A stretch of 46,862 nt of DNA, taken from IMG/VR virus record IMGVR_UViG_2721755711_000004, one strand, 5' to 3'. Positions 34,211 through 38,524 of the stretch are shown here, one piece after another. A model generated the notes under the pieces. That model saw only the letters and a list, made by a program, of their open reading frames with translations. It was not told the origin of the DNA and searched no databases. The translations under genes and the position numbers were made by a program. Origin of the DNA: a virus. Taxonomy: Duplodnaviria; Heunggongvirae; Uroviricota; Caudoviricetes. How positions within the stretch are numbered: the stretch's first letter is position 1; every line of letters starts with the position of its first letter.

Positions 34211-34377
34211 CGGTTGTCTCTGCTGGCGCAGCAGGTGCCAGTTGTTCAGGCTGGCGTGCGAATTGTAAACCAGAATGCCAGGAAAAAACAAAACCCGCCG
34301 AAGCGGGTTACGTGCGGGTGCGTTGAGGATGCCTGACACATCAGAGGTGGCGAGGGATTTCTCCCCCGCCAGGTCTC

Positions 34378-34533
34378 TTACTCCTCAGGTTCGTAAGCTG
34401 TGAAGACAGCGACCTCCGTCTGGCCGGTTCGGATTCGTACCTCGCAGAGGTCTTTCCTCGTTACCAGTGCCGTCACTATGACGGTTAAACAGATGACGAT
34501 CAGGGCGATTAACATCGCCTTTTGCTGCTTCAT
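34378..34533 (-). CDS. hokD: Hok-family type I toxin
   Basis: 51 aa, MKQQKAMLIALIVICLTVIVTALVTRKDLCEVRIRTGQTEVAVFTAYEPEE; the track ORF extends upstream in frame to 34590. Confidence 0.85.
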   Translation of the reverse strand: MKQQKAMLIALIVICLTVIVTALVTRKDLCEVRIRTGQTEVAVFTAYEPEE

Positions 34534-35200
34534 AGCCTGCTTCTCCTTGCCTTTCGGCACGTAAGAGGCTAACCTAGATTTGCCGTTCATAGATTGAGCC
34601 TCAGATTAATGTTAAGCGTCTTGCAGGACGCGTAATGTTAACTGGGGCTTTTCTCTATCTGCCTTTGGTGTTCATGCCTGAGACAGATAGCCTCAAGCAC
34701 CCGCAGCCATTCTACTTAACTCCCGTTACCTCGCCAATATGAAATCAGTCAGAAAGGCGATCCATAAGAACAACAGCAAGGCAATAAATTGCCATTACAG
34801 CAGCAATAGCCAGCGCACATTTGAGAACCAGCACCACAACCTCCTGTATTGGACGTACACCAGTCCTGATAAATATGAGGCTGTCTCGTCAGTGATTCAA
34901 TACAACTATTGGGTATAGTTTCTGTGATTTTGTTCTGTAGAAATGGAACATAATAACCTGTCACCACCAGCACTTCTTTAAATACGCCAAGTCCGACGCA
35001 AGCTAACCTTCTAGCCCGCTTTGAGCGAAGAACGGACTGAGTAATTCAGGCCGTTAGCGACACTATGACATCATTAGCAACCAACTAGGAGTTGGTAATA
35101 GATGAGTTAATTAATTGATTAAAAACCGACGATTTTACTAGATTACGGGAAGAAGAAAGGCCGCTGGTACGGCCTCCCAGAGACTAGTCTATTGTTATGC

Positions 35201-35398
35201 TTAGAAACGCTTTTCTATCTCTTTTTCTCTTTCGTTTATTGCATCGTCAATGATTTTTTTTGCTGAATTAATTTGTGGTGTTTTTTCTGGTAATACATCT
35301 TCAAGATCTTTGGCAATTTTCTTTAATTTATCGATTTCTTTAGTTAAATCAGTTACAGATTTATCCGCTATTGACTTTGTCATTTTTCCATATTCCAT
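35201..35398 (-). CDS. hypothetical small charged (coiled-coil-like) protein
   Basis: 60-65-aa ORF in very AT-rich DNA, Lys/Glu/Asp rich, followed by a hairpin (AGGCCG...CGGCCT) on the minus strand. Confidence 0.35.
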   Translation of the reverse strand: MEYGKMTKSIADKSVTDLTKEIDKLKKIAKDLEDVLPEKTPQINSAKKIIDDAINEREKEIEKRF

Positions 35399-35592
35399 TC
35401 AATTTATTTATCAATCAGTTACCCGTAAACCTTATCATGGATTCCAATTATCGACAGCTGGGATTTTTACTTTCTTGATCTGCCCCAGGCGAATGACATA
35501 TCCCCATTAACCAATGTCCGCTCCTAGCACTTAGTAGACATTAATAGATTGTAAGCGTTCCCGTCATGTAGCGGTCACCGATTGGTGATGAA

Positions 35593-35952
35593 TTGAAGCG
35601 GATCATTGATGAAAGTCGCAATAACGTGGCCAGCCCATTTATCGTTCACCAGATCCCGGAACGGCAGGTTAAACGCAGCAAAGAAGTTTCTCATCCCACT
35701 CAAGTTGCACCAGACTATTTGAGTCGGTCGTTTTCAGCTACGCGTGACAAGCTGGGTTTATATGACAAACGGCCGATGGATGAAAGGCCAACCTTTCACG
35801 AAATTCGCGCCTTAGCAGCACATCTTTTTGATCAGCAGGGCATCGATCCACAAGGACGAATGGCACACAGCGATGCGAAATCAACTAAAATCTACACGCA
35901 AAACCATATCGACTGGGTTGTAGTTCCACATGGAGAAATTAAAGCCAGCTAG
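35593..35952 (+). pseudogene. tyrosine integrase C-terminal fragment (remnant, intK-like position)
   Basis: 119 aa containing catalytic-domain motifs (HEIRALAAHLF...GRMAHSDAKSTKIYT) but lacking the N-terminal two-thirds of an integrase. Confidence 0.6.
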
Positions 35953-36039
35953 CACCAAGTAAGGCATAGAATTTTATTAACCAAGGAGCATATGACCAGT
36001 AATTAATTCTTACCGGAAAGTTAGCCCTGCTAAAATTAA

Positions 36040-36086
36040 TATTAACAAATAAAAAAATAGGGGCAAATATTTATATTTGCCCTCGC
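36040..36086 (-). terminator. rho-independent terminator downstream of the NTase/2-TM operon
   Basis: Hairpin GGGCAAATAT-TTAT-ATTTGCCC followed on the minus strand by a run of seven T. Confidence 0.5.
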
Positions 36087-36093
36087 AACATAT

Positions 36094-36676
36094 TTATCTT
36101 CTTTTCAGTTCCTTGGGAAGAAAAGCATCTATTTCTTCTTCAGAAAATGTTAAATCTTCTTTGTTTTTTAATGCGTCCTGTGCTTTTTTATAAGCTTCAA
36201 ATGTTGTACTAGGAGAGCCTGAATACACTGAATGTAAACTCTCGAGTAACGAATCCCGCTCTGACTGCAATTGCTCGATTGGTTTTTCACCCATTGCTAA
36301 GTCTGTAAGCAATGATAAATACTTTTCTCGGATTAACCAGATCTCATTTGCAGCCTGCTTATGTTTTTGCGCCAACTCACCAAGGTCATAATCTTTGGTA
36401 TAAGCGTTAAGAATGAGAAGCAGTGTTGATACAACAATCCCAACCCCCGTGCCTACTTCACCCGCGCCGAAAAAAGTTGCTAGAAAGCCTCCAGTAGTTA
36501 AGGCGGAGAGAATTATTTGCCAAAACTTTATAGAAGATAGTCGAGATAGGAGAATGTCTGAGCATTTTTCATGCGTCTTATGTGAGTAAACGACCCGACC
36601 ATAACACTCTCTGATCTGCCCTTCTAAAACCCTTCTAGATTCAGGTGTATCCTTAGTCTGGAAATGTTGATCCATA
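36094..36676 (-). CDS. two-TM membrane protein, SLATT-like predicted effector
   Basis: About 194 aa from MDQHFQTKD... (GGGAG RBS 5 nt upstream); two adjacent hydrophobic helices (FWQIILSALTTGGFLATFF and GVGIVVSTLLLILNAY) followed by a helical C-terminal region. Overlaps the upstream NTase gene by 24 nt. Confidence 0.6.
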
Positions 36677-37534
36677 AATCTCCCGCCATTTTTGCTTAGC
36701 CGACCATTCGCGTTTTGGGGTCGCCATTTCATGCTCTATAGCTTCGAGTGAAATGTTATAGCACCGTTTTGCTTTATATTGGAAAAGCCCTTTACCATAG
36801 ACATACTGACCACTTCCTGGCGCTTTCCAATACTCCTTACTCGTATCTTGATCAGCCATCCATTTGAAGAAATCACGACTCATGAAATCGTAGTAAAGAT
36901 ACGACTTATCTCTATGCGCCCAATTTTCAATGAATTGATACGCAAGCGTATCAATGAGTAAACCACTTACAGGTACATCCCATTTACGCTTCCAAGCTCT
37001 TGCCATTCTACAAAGTTGCACCAAATTGTTATTGGTAATGTTATTTCTTAACCTCATTGCAGAAATTTCTGGCTTTGGATTTGTAATCCTCCAACGGCCA
37101 CCACCGTTCGCATCAGGAAATGTGTAACTATCACTAACATTGAGGAAAGCTGGAACGACTTCAAATGTAATTCCATCATTGAACGGTACAAGGATCACTT
37201 GACCGTCACCTCTAATACTAGTGGTAGCATAGGTTTTTTCAATAGATCTCTTAACCGCTTGAAGCAATGCTGACTGCCCATTTCCTAAGTAGCTATTGTA
37301 TTTTTGATACTCGGAATATGGTAGCTGAAAAATCATATCCAGATCGCTCAAGCCTTGCGTAGCTGTGTTCCGACCATATGATCCAACGTAGAGACTATGA
37401 GAAGTATCAGAACTGCTATCCCAAAAATCCGTATTTAAACGCTTCGTTATATTCCTATATCTAGTTGAAATTGTTCCACCATCTTTTACAGTAAGATTGG
37501 AGCAAAATCCGCAAAACCACTCAGCTAAACCCAT
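36653..37534 (-). CDS. minimal nucleotidyltransferase (pol-beta superfamily; CD-NTase/SMODS-like)
   Basis: About 293 aa; motifs GSYGRNTATQGLSDLDMIF (GS...DxD) and ITFEVVPAF (third acidic residue on hxhEhhP). ATG at 37534 with AAGGAA upstream; the track ORF starts at a TTG two codons earlier. Confidence 0.65.
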   Translation of the reverse strand: MGLAEWFCGFCSNLTVKDGGTISTRYRNITKRLNTDFWDSSSDTSHSLYVGSYGRNTATQGLSDLDMIFQLPYSEYQKYNSYLGNGQSALLQAVKRSIEKTYATTSIRGDGQVILVPFNDGITFEVVPAFLNVSDSYTFPDANGGGRWRITNPKPEISAMRLRNNITNNNLVQLCRMARAWKRKWDVPVSGLLIDTLAYQFIENWAHRDKSYLYYDFMSRDFFKWMADQDTSKEYWKAPGSGQYVYGKGLFQYKAKRCYNISLEAIEHEMATPKREWSAKQKWREIYGSTFPD

Positions 37535-37847
37535 GCTCAATTCCTTTTCTAAAATCTAATGAAAAATTCAAGGGCGCATGTTCCATGCATCATTGATAAC
37601 TTTTTTCAGTCAGCTAGAGCAACATAATTGATACTAACTAGCTGTTTCTTCAAGTGAGTAACCTACTTTAGCATCAAGGTATTATACCTACCAAGCATGG
37701 GGAGAAACCACCACTTAAGCCATTGAAGTATATAGAGCAGATTTTGTTGAAAAAGCACTGTTTGTTTATACATATGAATAGTGCTTTTAACCAGCAATAG
37801 CGCGGCTCTCAGCGTTTTACAAGCAGTGTCATGGGGTGTCGGGGATC

Positions 37848-37876
37848 GGAAGTTCAAATCCTCTCGTGCCGACCCA
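37848..37876 (+). other. tRNA-like 3' fragment (T-arm-like GTTCAAATCC plus acceptor-like stretch ending CCCA)
   Basis: ggaaGTTCAAATCCtctcgtgccgaCCCA resembles a tRNA T-loop and 3' acceptor end, but no matching 5' half or D-arm is present upstream. Confidence 0.25.
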
Positions 37877-37888
37877 AAAGATTATATA

Positions 37889-37916
37889 AACCAGCCTGTT
37901 ATTGCTGGTTTTTTAT
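37889..37916 (+). terminator. rho-independent terminator-like hairpin
   Basis: AACCAGC-CTGTTATT-GCTGGTT followed by TTTTT, immediately after the tRNA-like fragment. Confidence 0.45.
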
Positions 37917-38101
37917 GCCTACCTTCCTGGTAGGGAAGCTATGGGGAATTACTGGGGAATCCCCCCTTTACCTGCTCCCATTAAACTAACATAGCACGAT
38001 GTAAGCAACTTCCGCTTCTGGCACAAAGCGGACAACCACGCTAGCTCTACCCTGTGCCACAAAATGTCAATTTACATCTGAACTAATGCACTTTAATCTC
38101 G

Positions 38102-38524
38102 TCACTTCAAAAAATACCGAACATCCCCCTGATAAAACGACAATATCCGCTGCATAACTTCGCTTTTACGACACTCAGTACAAATTATATTATGACGCCT
38201 GTCGTAACGACGTATTTCTCCATCAGGTAATGACCAGATAAGGTCCGGATCAACCGCAGATGGTTTCTTCAGCTTTGCCCTTGAGAGCTTTTTACGGGCA
38301 TTTTGCCAGTCCTTACGCGCCTGTTCAGACGGGAATAACCCGTAACCAGAGTTGTATACATCGCCACTGGCAACCAGCTCTCTGGCCAGAACGCTCATCA
38401 GATATCTTGTTGCCCCAGTTTTAGCTTCCAGTTGTCGTAACGTCTCGCGCCCACTCTGGCGTACGAGTTCAAGAACCTGCCCTTTAATTTTTTCCCGCTC
38501 TTCTTGTGTAAAAACTTTTGCCAC
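38102..38524 (-). CDS. hypothetical protein
   Basis: 140-aa ORF downstream of the O-like gene, with a C-terminal CTEC motif; no recognisable family from sequence alone. Confidence 0.5.
   Translation of the reverse strand: MAKVFTQEEREKIKGQVLELVRQSGRETLRQLEAKTGATRYLMSVLARELVASGDVYNSGYGLFPSEQARKDWQNARKKLSRAKLKKPSAVDPDLIWSLPDGEIRRYDRRHNIICTECRKSEVMQRILSFYQGDVRYFLK

Follow-up and report, generated by a model that had tools for sequence, protein, structure and literature searches.

A prophage-borne gene pair of Escherichia coli, encoding a CD-NTase and a SLATT_4 membrane protein, is very probably a minimal type I CBASS operon

Does the pair of adjoining genes studied here, one for a nucleotidyltransferase (NTase) and the other for a small membrane protein, form an anti-phage signalling module, and if so, of which kind? 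The window that we analysed is the whole 46,862-nucleotide stretch of virus record IMGVR_UViG_2721755711_000004. An initial annotation had read the pair as a prophage-encoded abortive-infection module, of either type I CBASS or Hailong type. The two overlapping minus-strand genes that it described were recovered as open reading frames (Table 1), and the HMM E-values of their products, from 1e-50 to 1e-143, exclude chance frames for both genes. The open-reading-frame list begins the NTase gene at a TTG (37540). We take the ATG at 37534 as the start instead, because the homologues all begin with MGLAEWF or MALADWF and because RefSeq uses the ATG.

Since the two genes lie in different frames, the length of their overlap is not a multiple of three; it comes to 23 nt, rather than the 24 nt first reported. 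An overlap of this kind suggests, from the gene arrangement, that the translation of the two genes may be coupled. Directly 3' of the SLATT gene we find the terminator described earlier, as a terminator-like hairpin followed by a T run: on the minus strand, positions 36082-36061 read GGGCAAATATAAATATTTGCCC, then CTATTTTTTT, with a 9-bp stem and a 4-nt loop. No second terminator-like site occurs within 35400-38200. The region 5' of the NTase gene is AT-rich, again as first described, and a Shine-Dalgarno-like AAGGA precedes the ATG; a sigma-70 consensus scan upstream of the gene returned no promoter-like site.

Table 1. Features of the gene pair and of the cassette that carries it (positions in the window)
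Feature	Coordinates	Strand	Description and evidence
CD-NTase / SMODS nucleotidyltransferase, probable CBASS cyclase	36653..37534	-	293 aa; Pfam, PADLOC, AF2, Foldseek
SLATT_4 two-transmembrane protein, probable effector	36094..36675	-	193 aa; Pfam, NCBIfam, PADLOC, hydropathy, AF2
NTase/SLATT gene overlap	36653..36675	-	23 nt; end of NTase gene over start of SLATT gene
Intrinsic-terminator-like hairpin and T run	36051..36082	-	12 nt past the SLATT stop codon
AT-rich 5' region of NTase gene	37535..37700	-	35.5% GC, against 49% for the window
Cargo cassette with the NTase-SLATT_4 module	35022..38029	.	3.0 kb, 40% GC
Tyrosine recombinase/integrase remnant, C-terminal part only	35593..35952	+	RefSeq 'recombinase' pseudogene
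tRNA-Pro fragment	37828..37879	+	52 nt, matching part of E. coli tRNA-Pro at 94% identity
Hypothetical 65-aa ORF	35201..35398	-	WP_000167380.1; travels with the cassette

The NTase is a cGAS/DncV-like enzyme, and its identity is clear from profile searches. It matches the Pfam family SMODS (PF18144) over the entire profile (2.1e-50, positions 1-164 of 164) and the PADLOC CBASS "Cyclase" model (PDLC00786) end to end (1.4e-143, positions 1-292 of 293), while Pfam finds no AGS-C sensor domain in it. Against the NCBIfam equivalog CBASS_cyclase_b (NF041117) it scores 117.3 bits, below the curated cut-off of 200, and it is therefore related to, but outside, that curated subgroup. Its catalytic set consists of G51 and S52, of D64, L65 and D66, and of a third acidic residue, E125, in the stretch ITFEVVPAF, where the initial annotation had placed it; the spacing of the motif is GS-x11-DLD, and not GS-x9-DLD as had been stated. 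Of 56 homologues, which reach down to 30% identity, 48-56 retain G51, S52, D64, D66 and E125, and these residues are conserved in non-prophage contexts as well. When codon positions are compared across phyla, identity is 76-93% at positions 1 and 2 and 31-69%, mostly near saturation, at position 3. Thus, we conclude that purifying selection on the protein is strong.

The fold of the enzyme leads to the same family. Its AF2 model (pLDDT 95.9) has the CD-NTase fold, in the structural comparison that the initial annotation had proposed, and contains N-terminal helices at residues 3-14 and 19-38, in agreement with the helix said to precede the motif. The best 50 Foldseek matches of the model in the PDB are all CD-NTases (CdnD, CdnC, CdnB, CdnE, DncV, CdnG), with CdnD of P. 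aeruginosa (PaCdnD) at the top (TM 0.75-0.77). In a profile search of PDB sequences PaCdnD again comes first (1.7e-28), followed by other CD-NTases, OAS and cGAS, and D64 and D66 align with D62 and D64 of PaCdnD. An antitoxin-type MNT, an AbiEii or an aminoglycoside NTase, any of which would have told against the proposed module had it been the best match, was considered and rejected: Pfam lists no AbiEii or KNTase family for the protein, and the generic NTP_transf_2 model reaches 16.3 bits, under its cut-off of 21.

The clade of the enzyme is less firmly placed than its family. CD-NTase clade names follow Whiteley et al. 2019. The nearest solved structure, PaCdnD (PDB 6P82/6P8J/6P8U), is a type III CBASS cyclase only 23% identical to the NTase, and at so low an identity the fold match to CdnD does not fix the clade. 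PaCdnD is partnered by HORMA and Trip13-like regulators and a nuclease effector, whereas the locus here has none of these. Homologues that are 45-49% identical to the NTase carry AGS-C, and those that are 74-75% identical pair with SLATT_6; AGS-C is reported to occur in none of the clades A, C, D and E, and to be variably present in F and G (bioRxiv 10.1101/2023.05.21.541620). By this indirect argument from its relatives, the NTase possibly belongs to clade F. Against clade F, the nearest solved structure is one of clade D. We know of no in vitro product for clade F.

The second protein is a full-length member of SLATT_4, and thus has the SLATT-type architecture attributed to it earlier. It matches Pfam SLATT_4 (PF18186) at 4.4e-74 (248 bits against a cut-off of 27, positions 1-165 of 165), NCBIfam SLATT_4 (NF033632) at 150.7 bits (cut-off 55), and the PADLOC "2TM Effector" model (PDLC00696) end to end at 9.9e-85; its Pfam matches are limited to SLATT_4 and SLATT_5. 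Two neighbouring hydrophobic segments (residues ~51-70 and ~74-92) are separated by a loop of 3-4 residues (G-A-G-E). Kyte-Doolittle values in 19-residue windows exceed 1.2 over residues 41-95, with peaks at ~54-72 and ~71-89. The AF2 model, built on an alignment of database proteins, is all-helical (pLDDT 81), with helices at 11-67 and 72-96. Hydropathy and model therefore bear out the two tightly packed transmembrane helices and the helical C-terminal domain first described, so that the partner does have predicted membrane segments, whose absence would have spoken against the module. The predicted layout is a cytoplasmic N-terminal helix, a transmembrane hairpin and a cytoplasmic helical C-terminal part, and the helical parts contain many invariant charged residues (R22, R27, H32, K33, E36, K37, H105, R116, E117, R140).

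SLATT4 has been given as a class of CBASS membrane effector, and SLATT-type proteins are among the commonest CBASS effectors (PMC12480259). We recognised no nucleotide-sensor domain of the SAVED, STING or Cap15-barrel type in the SLATT_4 protein, and the PDB sequence and fold searches gave no specific solved relative; that SLATT_4 senses a signal is therefore an assumption. Cap15 and Cap14 are likewise transmembrane CBASS effectors, which act at the inner membrane; they bind their ligand through a separate domain (beta-barrel or SAVED), whereas SLATT_4 is all-helical and has none.

SMODS-SLATT associations were reportedly described by Burroughs et al. in 2015. In our search for related loci, made with a close 14-sequence NTase alignment, the NTase is paired with SLATT_4 in 76 of 80 species loci, spread over many phyla. 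Most of these 76 share the overlap of roughly 23 nt, the SLATT match starting 20 nt ahead of the point where the NTase match ends, and in three of the four loci without SLATT_4 its place is taken by a SLATT_6 gene, which lies upstream. Among the homologues, proteins of 490-508 aa fuse SMODS and SLATT_4 in one chain, and those of ~430 aa are SMODS-AGS_C proteins. Within E. coli, RefSeq gives the pair SMODS/SLATT_4-type names in 47 of 5426 complete genomes, among which it is at least 99% identical; close relatives in sequenced phage genomes were limited to a partial, 44%-identical match in two Listeria phages. No papers citing the two protein accessions were found, nor, in the literature searched, any experimental test of a SMODS-SLATT_4 operon. 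Judged by its families, the pair is already catalogued: it is a predicted anti-phage system of the ordinary two-gene form and of a known kind, and so not a new kind of system.

The pair is prophage-encoded, as had been proposed. It lies in a cassette between the replication and the nin/antitermination genes, and the element that hosts this cassette is an intact-looking Qin-like lambdoid prophage of E. coli. The neighbours of the module are the recombinase pseudogene, the 65-aa ORF (no significant Pfam match), a DUF977 gene and a replisome organiser gene; no Rfam element and no other CBASS ancillary genes (Cap2/Cap3, HORMA/TRIP13, QueC/TGT/OGG-like) were found beside it. The integrase remnant is frameshifted and lacks its N-terminus, and matches the C-terminal part of the Pfam Phage_integrase profile at 3.3e-4, below the gathering score. 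By blastn, practically every E. coli genome has the 52-nt match within an annotated tRNA-Pro gene, and the fragment is likely to be what is left of the attachment site used by the element that delivered the cassette. ARAGORN found no intact tRNA in the window, and no convincing terminal repeats were seen at the cassette borders.

Taken with the profile matches, where PADLOC Cyclase and 2TM Effector as well as Pfam SMODS and SLATT_4 all responded in the searches that the initial annotation had called for, this context leads us to regard the pair, with considerable confidence, as a minimal type I CBASS operon that a Qin-like lambdoid prophage carries on a moron-like cassette. Type I CBASS was reportedly described by Millman et al. 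in 2020. Type I CBASS operons with SLATT effectors are likewise two-gene units, of a SMODS/CD-NTase and a small two-transmembrane SLATT protein, without ancillary genes. Among operons of this sort, those from E. coli that have two genes and a SLATT6 effector protected at least 10,000-fold against phages belonging to five families (bioRxiv 10.1101/2023.05.21.541620). EcCdnF04-SLATT6 and EcCdnF05-SLATT6 differ from the operon here in having SLATT6, where ours has SLATT_4, downstream and with the 23-nt overlap, and in carrying the AGS-C Ig-like domain, which our NTase lacks. The type I CBASS reading settles the annotation of the window, and it explains the low-GC 3-kb insert in a lambdoid prophage.

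We infer how such an operon might work from the accepted model of CBASS and from those relatives that have been tested. In an uninfected lysogen the NTase would be silent, and a cue from an infecting phage would switch it on; for type I CBASS, the mutations by which phages escape lie in virion assembly proteins. The activated enzyme would make a (cyclic) oligonucleotide from NTPs, which would bind the cytoplasmic face of SLATT_4, cause it to oligomerise or open, and so permeabilise the inner membrane. Infection would then be abortive, in that growth arrest or death before the phage cycle ends would protect clonal lysogens, and hence the prophage. Since it is native to E. coli and only 1.5 kb in length, the operon would be a convenient model for the structure and ligand site of SLATT_4 and for the product of the NTase.

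There are other ways of reading the pair. It is possible, though we think it unlikely, that this highly conserved, sensor-less subfamily of SMODS enzymes acts in a stoichiometric complex with SLATT_4 rather than as a diffusible-messenger CBASS, through an undescribed CD-NTase product or a guard-like closure of the channel. Hints of such a complex come from the conserved 23-nt coupling and from the SMODS-SLATT_4 fusions that occur in nature, and, if it exists, SLATT_4 would carry an all-helical membrane module of a new kind that senses nucleotides and has no relative of solved structure. A guard of this inverse kind would follow the logic of Hailong or Panoptes: a constitutive nucleotide would keep the SLATT_4 channel closed, and its destruction or sequestration by phage enzymes or sponges would free the channel. 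Hailong, with its ion channel HalA and its NTase HalB, was reportedly described by Tan et al. in 2025. Two-gene systems of an NTase and a membrane effector that obey such a logic do exist (PMC13434031; PMC12657230), and Hailong resembles our pair in being one; its HalB makes a tyrosine-primed oligo-dA that represses HalA (PMC13434031). A minimal NTase without AGS-C or any other sensor domain would suit a guard, as would tight coupling and natural fusion, which fit a stoichiometric, toxin/antitoxin-like relation. By sequence and fold, however, the NTase is a CD-NTase, and neither the Cas10-type (mCpol) enzyme of Panoptes (PMC12657230) nor of the Hailong-like type, whose components, in one account, are a protein that joins NTase-like to HEPN-like parts and another that joins pentapeptide repeats to an IRK channel (PMC13586616). 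Pfam finds no HEPN, pentapeptide-repeat or IRK-channel domain in either of our proteins, and neither HalA nor HalB is named among the listed matches of either protein to solved structures. At the position of the C-terminal Tyr287 of the NTase, 35 of 56 homologues have Phe and 18 have Tyr, so that the residue is not conserved, whereas HalB reportedly primes synthesis on a tyrosine (PMC13434031). Moreover, the type I CBASS operons with SLATT6 behaved as ordinary CBASS when screened (bioRxiv 10.1101/2023.05.21.541620). We therefore consider guard logic improbable. Membership in Hailong itself, as secondary descriptions define that system, was rejected on the SMODS and SLATT_4 domains, the CD-NTase fold and the non-conserved tyrosine; of the two types first offered for the pair, CBASS is upheld by Pfam, PADLOC and fold, and Hailong is not supported by domains and fold.

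The cassette itself invites two further explanations. The pair might not be mainly anti-phage at all, serving instead to addict the host to, or stabilise, the cassette or prophage, or acting through its membrane protein in accessory lysis or superinfection exclusion. A hok/sok toxin-antitoxin locus adjoins the pair, the small mobile cassette that carries it has a decayed integrase, and in its small size the membrane protein resembles a holin; yet both families are defined by their association with nucleotide-signalling conflict systems, the catalytic residues are under strong purifying selection across phyla, outside prophages as well, and genes for a holin, a lysozyme and spanins are present at another place in the prophage. 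On this evidence we regard such a role as very improbable. To the idea that the pair is a decaying, non-functional relic, dragged along with a degraded integrative element, we give scarcely any credence. The pseudogene state of the integrase next door, the mere fragment left of the tRNA-Pro attachment site, the want of a consensus promoter in the sigma-70 scan, and an IS1203 that interrupts the module region in one genome would all fit decay, but both reading frames are intact and full length against their profiles, they are at least 99% identical in the 47 genomes, and every catalytic and family-invariant residue is present.

The cassette occupies a cargo slot with variable contents. In other lambdoid prophages the same slot holds, for example, RelA/SpoT-domain, NUDIX+HAD, QueH or methyltransferase genes, and strain AR435 has a copy of the cassette, 99.6% identical, in a different prophage context.

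The module comprises a nucleotidyltransferase gene (NTase) and, downstream, the gene for a SLATT_4 membrane protein, both on the minus strand and exactly where the initial annotation had placed them. That annotation read the pair as a minimal type I CBASS or Hailong-type module. Its observations hold after minor corrections, and the evidence supports its main interpretation. Systems of this kind are already known and catalogued, and the module's novelty is therefore low. The genes do overlap, in different reading frames, but by 23 nt rather than 24. Likewise, the NTase signature includes GS, DLD and a third acidic residue in ITFEVVPAF, as described, but with a spacing of x11 rather than x9; that is, the motif is G51-S52-x11-D64-L65-D66, followed by E125. 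Downstream there is a single terminator-like hairpin, and the AT-rich upstream region is present as well: the 166 nt preceding the NTase gene contain 35.5% GC, versus 49% in the window. A consensus scan of these 166 nt finds no sigma-70 consensus site. An ORF listing starts the NTase gene at a TTG at 37540, which is unsupported by homologues or RefSeq.

Features of the gene pair, its cassette and the adjoining toxin-antitoxin locus (window coordinates)
Feature	Position	Strand	Remarks
NTase gene	36653-37534	-	293 aa; start is ATG at 37534, preceded by AAGGA
SLATT_4 gene	36094-36675	-	193 aa
Terminator-like hairpin and T run	36082-36061	-	12 nt past SLATT_4 stop codon
65-aa ORF			within cassette
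Tyrosine recombinase C-terminal remnant	35593-35952		within cassette
tRNA-Pro fragment	37828-37879	+	within cassette; 52 nt; 94% identical to E. coli tRNA-Pro
hok/sok-type toxin-antitoxin locus	34378-34702	-	complete; just outside cassette
mok/hokD reading frame	34378-34590	-	

The upstream protein had been proposed to be a signalling-type NTase, and its family and fold agree. Pfam SMODS (PF18144) matches it across the entire profile (2.1e-50), and the PADLOC-DB CBASS 'Cyclase' model matches it over 292 of 293 positions (1.4e-143); its score against the NCBIfam equivalog CBASS_cyclase_b is near, but below, the cut-off (117 versus 200 bits). In the Pfam search the generic NTP_transf_2 model stays below threshold and the AbiEii, MNT and aminoglycoside-NTase families give no match, so that antitoxin-type or aminoglycoside enzymes are not its best-scoring relatives. 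Its AlphaFold2 model (pLDDT 95.9, pTM 0.91), obtained from an alignment of 56 sequences down to 30% identity, has as its best 50 Foldseek matches in the PDB exclusively bacterial CD-NTases: P. aeruginosa CdnD (PaCdnD; TM 0.75-0.77, E 4.5e-14), then E. coli CdnC, B. fragilis CdnB (TM 0.75), E. cloacae CdnD, CdnE enzymes, DncV and CdnG. A profile search of PDB sequences also ranks PaCdnD first (1.7e-28), ahead of other CD-NTases and then OAS and cGAS. The catalytic aspartates align with D62 and D64 of PaCdnD. Among the 56 homologues, G51 is conserved in all 56, S52 in 53, D64 in 48 and D66 in 52; at position 125, 43 sequences have E and 6 have D.

The downstream protein matches Pfam SLATT_4 (PF18186) across the entire profile (4.4e-74) and the PADLOC-DB CBASS '2TM Effector' model (9.9e-85), and it scores above the cut-off of the NCBIfam SLATT_4 model. 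A membrane partner with two TM helices and a helical C-terminal part had been expected, and both hydropathy and the structure model (pLDDT 81, helices throughout) bear this out: the end of a long helix (11-67) forms the first membrane segment, helix 72-96 forms the second, and several more helices follow. Since the two hydrophobic segments are adjacent and joined by a short G-A-G-E link, both ends of the protein are expected to face the same compartment, in all likelihood the cytoplasm. The family-invariant residues (R22, R27, H32, K33, E36, K37, H105, R116, E117, R140) are mainly charged or polar, lie outside the membrane segments, and may contribute to a ligand site.

The pairing of the two genes is widespread. 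NTase homologues number 6478 at E up to 1e-3. With each species represented by a single genome, at least 503 loci carry a relative, and we analysed the best 80 of these, from Proteobacteria, Bacteroidales, Anaerolineae, Nitrospira, Poribacteria, cyanobacteria, Dehalococcoidia and one methanogen MAG. Of the best 80, 76 also have a SLATT_4 homologue, and in most of them its start precedes the final sense codon of the NTase by 20 nt, matching the overlap seen in the window. Three of the four exceptions have an upstream SLATT_6 gene instead, the kind of effector swap that characterises CBASS. Homologues of about 430 aa, which are more distant, have AGS_C as their C-terminal domain, and homologues of 489-508 aa are single-chain SMODS-SLATT_4 fusions (P0280, P0284, P0286 and P0288, of which P0280 and P0286 were domain-checked); such natural fusions speak for a direct physical link between enzyme and membrane effector, at least in some lineages. 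The solved structure nearest to the NTase belongs to clade D. The AGS_C-bearing and SLATT_6-paired relatives, read against the published distribution, suggest that the NTase may belong to clade F or G; none of the clade F enzymes has a known in vitro product (bioRxiv 10.1101/2023.05.21.541620). In one Rhodanobacteraceae MAG, the NTase homologue follows another CD-NTase of a different type (L075:2446-3984, +; 512 aa, with a DncV-like NTase domain and AGS_C), and the 5.8 kb of contig examined there contain no SLATT_4 gene.

Compared across phyla with the E. coli NTase gene, the homologues show 72-93% identity at codon positions 1 and 2 but 31-69%, mostly near saturation, at position 3; their GC3 ranges from 0.23 to 0.78 and follows the host. 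We therefore attribute the similarity to strong purifying selection acting on an old family, and not to recent transfer alone. Judged from these sequences, the near-fixed length (about 291-294 aa) and 64-86% amino-acid identity of the NTases in the best 80 loci, across distant phyla and including an archaeal MAG, reflect a constraint unusually strong for a defence gene.

Family assignments, fold, catalytic set, membrane hairpin, operon linkage and prophage cargo context are established here and support an NTase and membrane-effector defence module, and classical type I CBASS is the best-supported reading. By analogy with the CBASS model and tested relatives, infection would activate the NTase to make a nucleotide signal; the cytoplasmic part of SLATT_4 would sense it and then breach the inner membrane, resulting in abortive infection. 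Among such relatives, EcCdnF04-SLATT6 and EcCdnF05-SLATT6, both two-gene operons of E. coli, give at least 10,000-fold restriction of phages from five families, and the mutations by which phages escape type I CBASS lie in virion assembly proteins (bioRxiv 10.1101/2023.05.21.541620).

The Hailong-type alternative fares less well. A Hailong-like system is described as consisting of NTase+HEPN-like and pentapeptide+IRK-channel proteins (PMC13586616), and HalB is reported to prime on a tyrosine (PMC13434031). The module has SMODS and SLATT_4 domains instead. The NTase has a CD-NTase fold, and its Tyr287 is Phe in most homologues. We therefore reject membership in the Hailong or Panoptes families. 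That the module nevertheless works by their guard logic is unlikely. An addiction or lysis role and a dead relic are both unlikely readings given the SMODS and SLATT_4 assignments, the strong purifying selection, and reading frames that are intact in 47 genomes. The module occurs at ≥99% identity in 47 of 5426 complete E. coli genomes, where RefSeq names its products 'SMODS domain-containing nucleotidyltransferase' and 'SLATT domain-containing protein'.

The module is indeed prophage-encoded. Positions 15900-46862 match E. coli strain C5 (NZ_CP010122.1) at 100% identity and extend to the prophage integrase adjoining rspB. The carrier, a Qin-related lambdoid prophage, has genes for head, tail, lysis, a Q-like antiterminator, replication and immunity, together with exo, xis and int. 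The module is flanked by the replication genes (replisome organiser, DUF977) on one side and by hokD/sok, ydfU and ydfT on the other, and is part of a 3.0-kb cassette with 40% GC; comparison with other prophages shows that the conserved flanks end at ~35022-35039 and ~38011-38029. Elsewhere the slot holds an 810-nt ORF, QueH, a RelA/SpoT-domain protein, NUDIX and HAD hydrolases, a DUF4209 protein, a methyltransferase, or an alpha/beta hydrolase with an ATP-binding protein (ATPase). The DUF977-hokD slot (~35040-38010) of lambdoid prophages is a variable cargo hotspot, and some of the genes it holds could have defence functions not yet characterised.

Strain AR435 (NZ_CP029115.1) has this 3,008-bp cassette, at 99.6% identity, in another prophage, where it lies past the tail-fibre genes. 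Next to it is a further island, which encodes an integrase, an HsdM-family methyltransferase and an ORC/CDC6-family AAA ATPase and could be a second defence cluster. The integrase remnant and tRNA-Pro fragment suggest that the cassette is what remains of a small integrative element that targeted tRNA-Pro and brought in the operon. The window contains no intact tRNA, and a search for repeats at the cassette borders found no convincing ones.

Within the neighbouring hok/sok-type locus, the Rfam sok model matches 34528-34702 (110 bits, 3e-25). The model of the Hfq-binding sRNA isrK matches weakly at 34288-34369 (minus strand; 27 bits, below the gathering score of 50); this match, which has a terminator-like hairpin at its end, may be due to chance. 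In strain AUSMDU00014361 (NZ_CP045827.1), IS1203, an IS3-family element, interrupts the match to the module region, leaving two pieces, and may have inactivated that copy.
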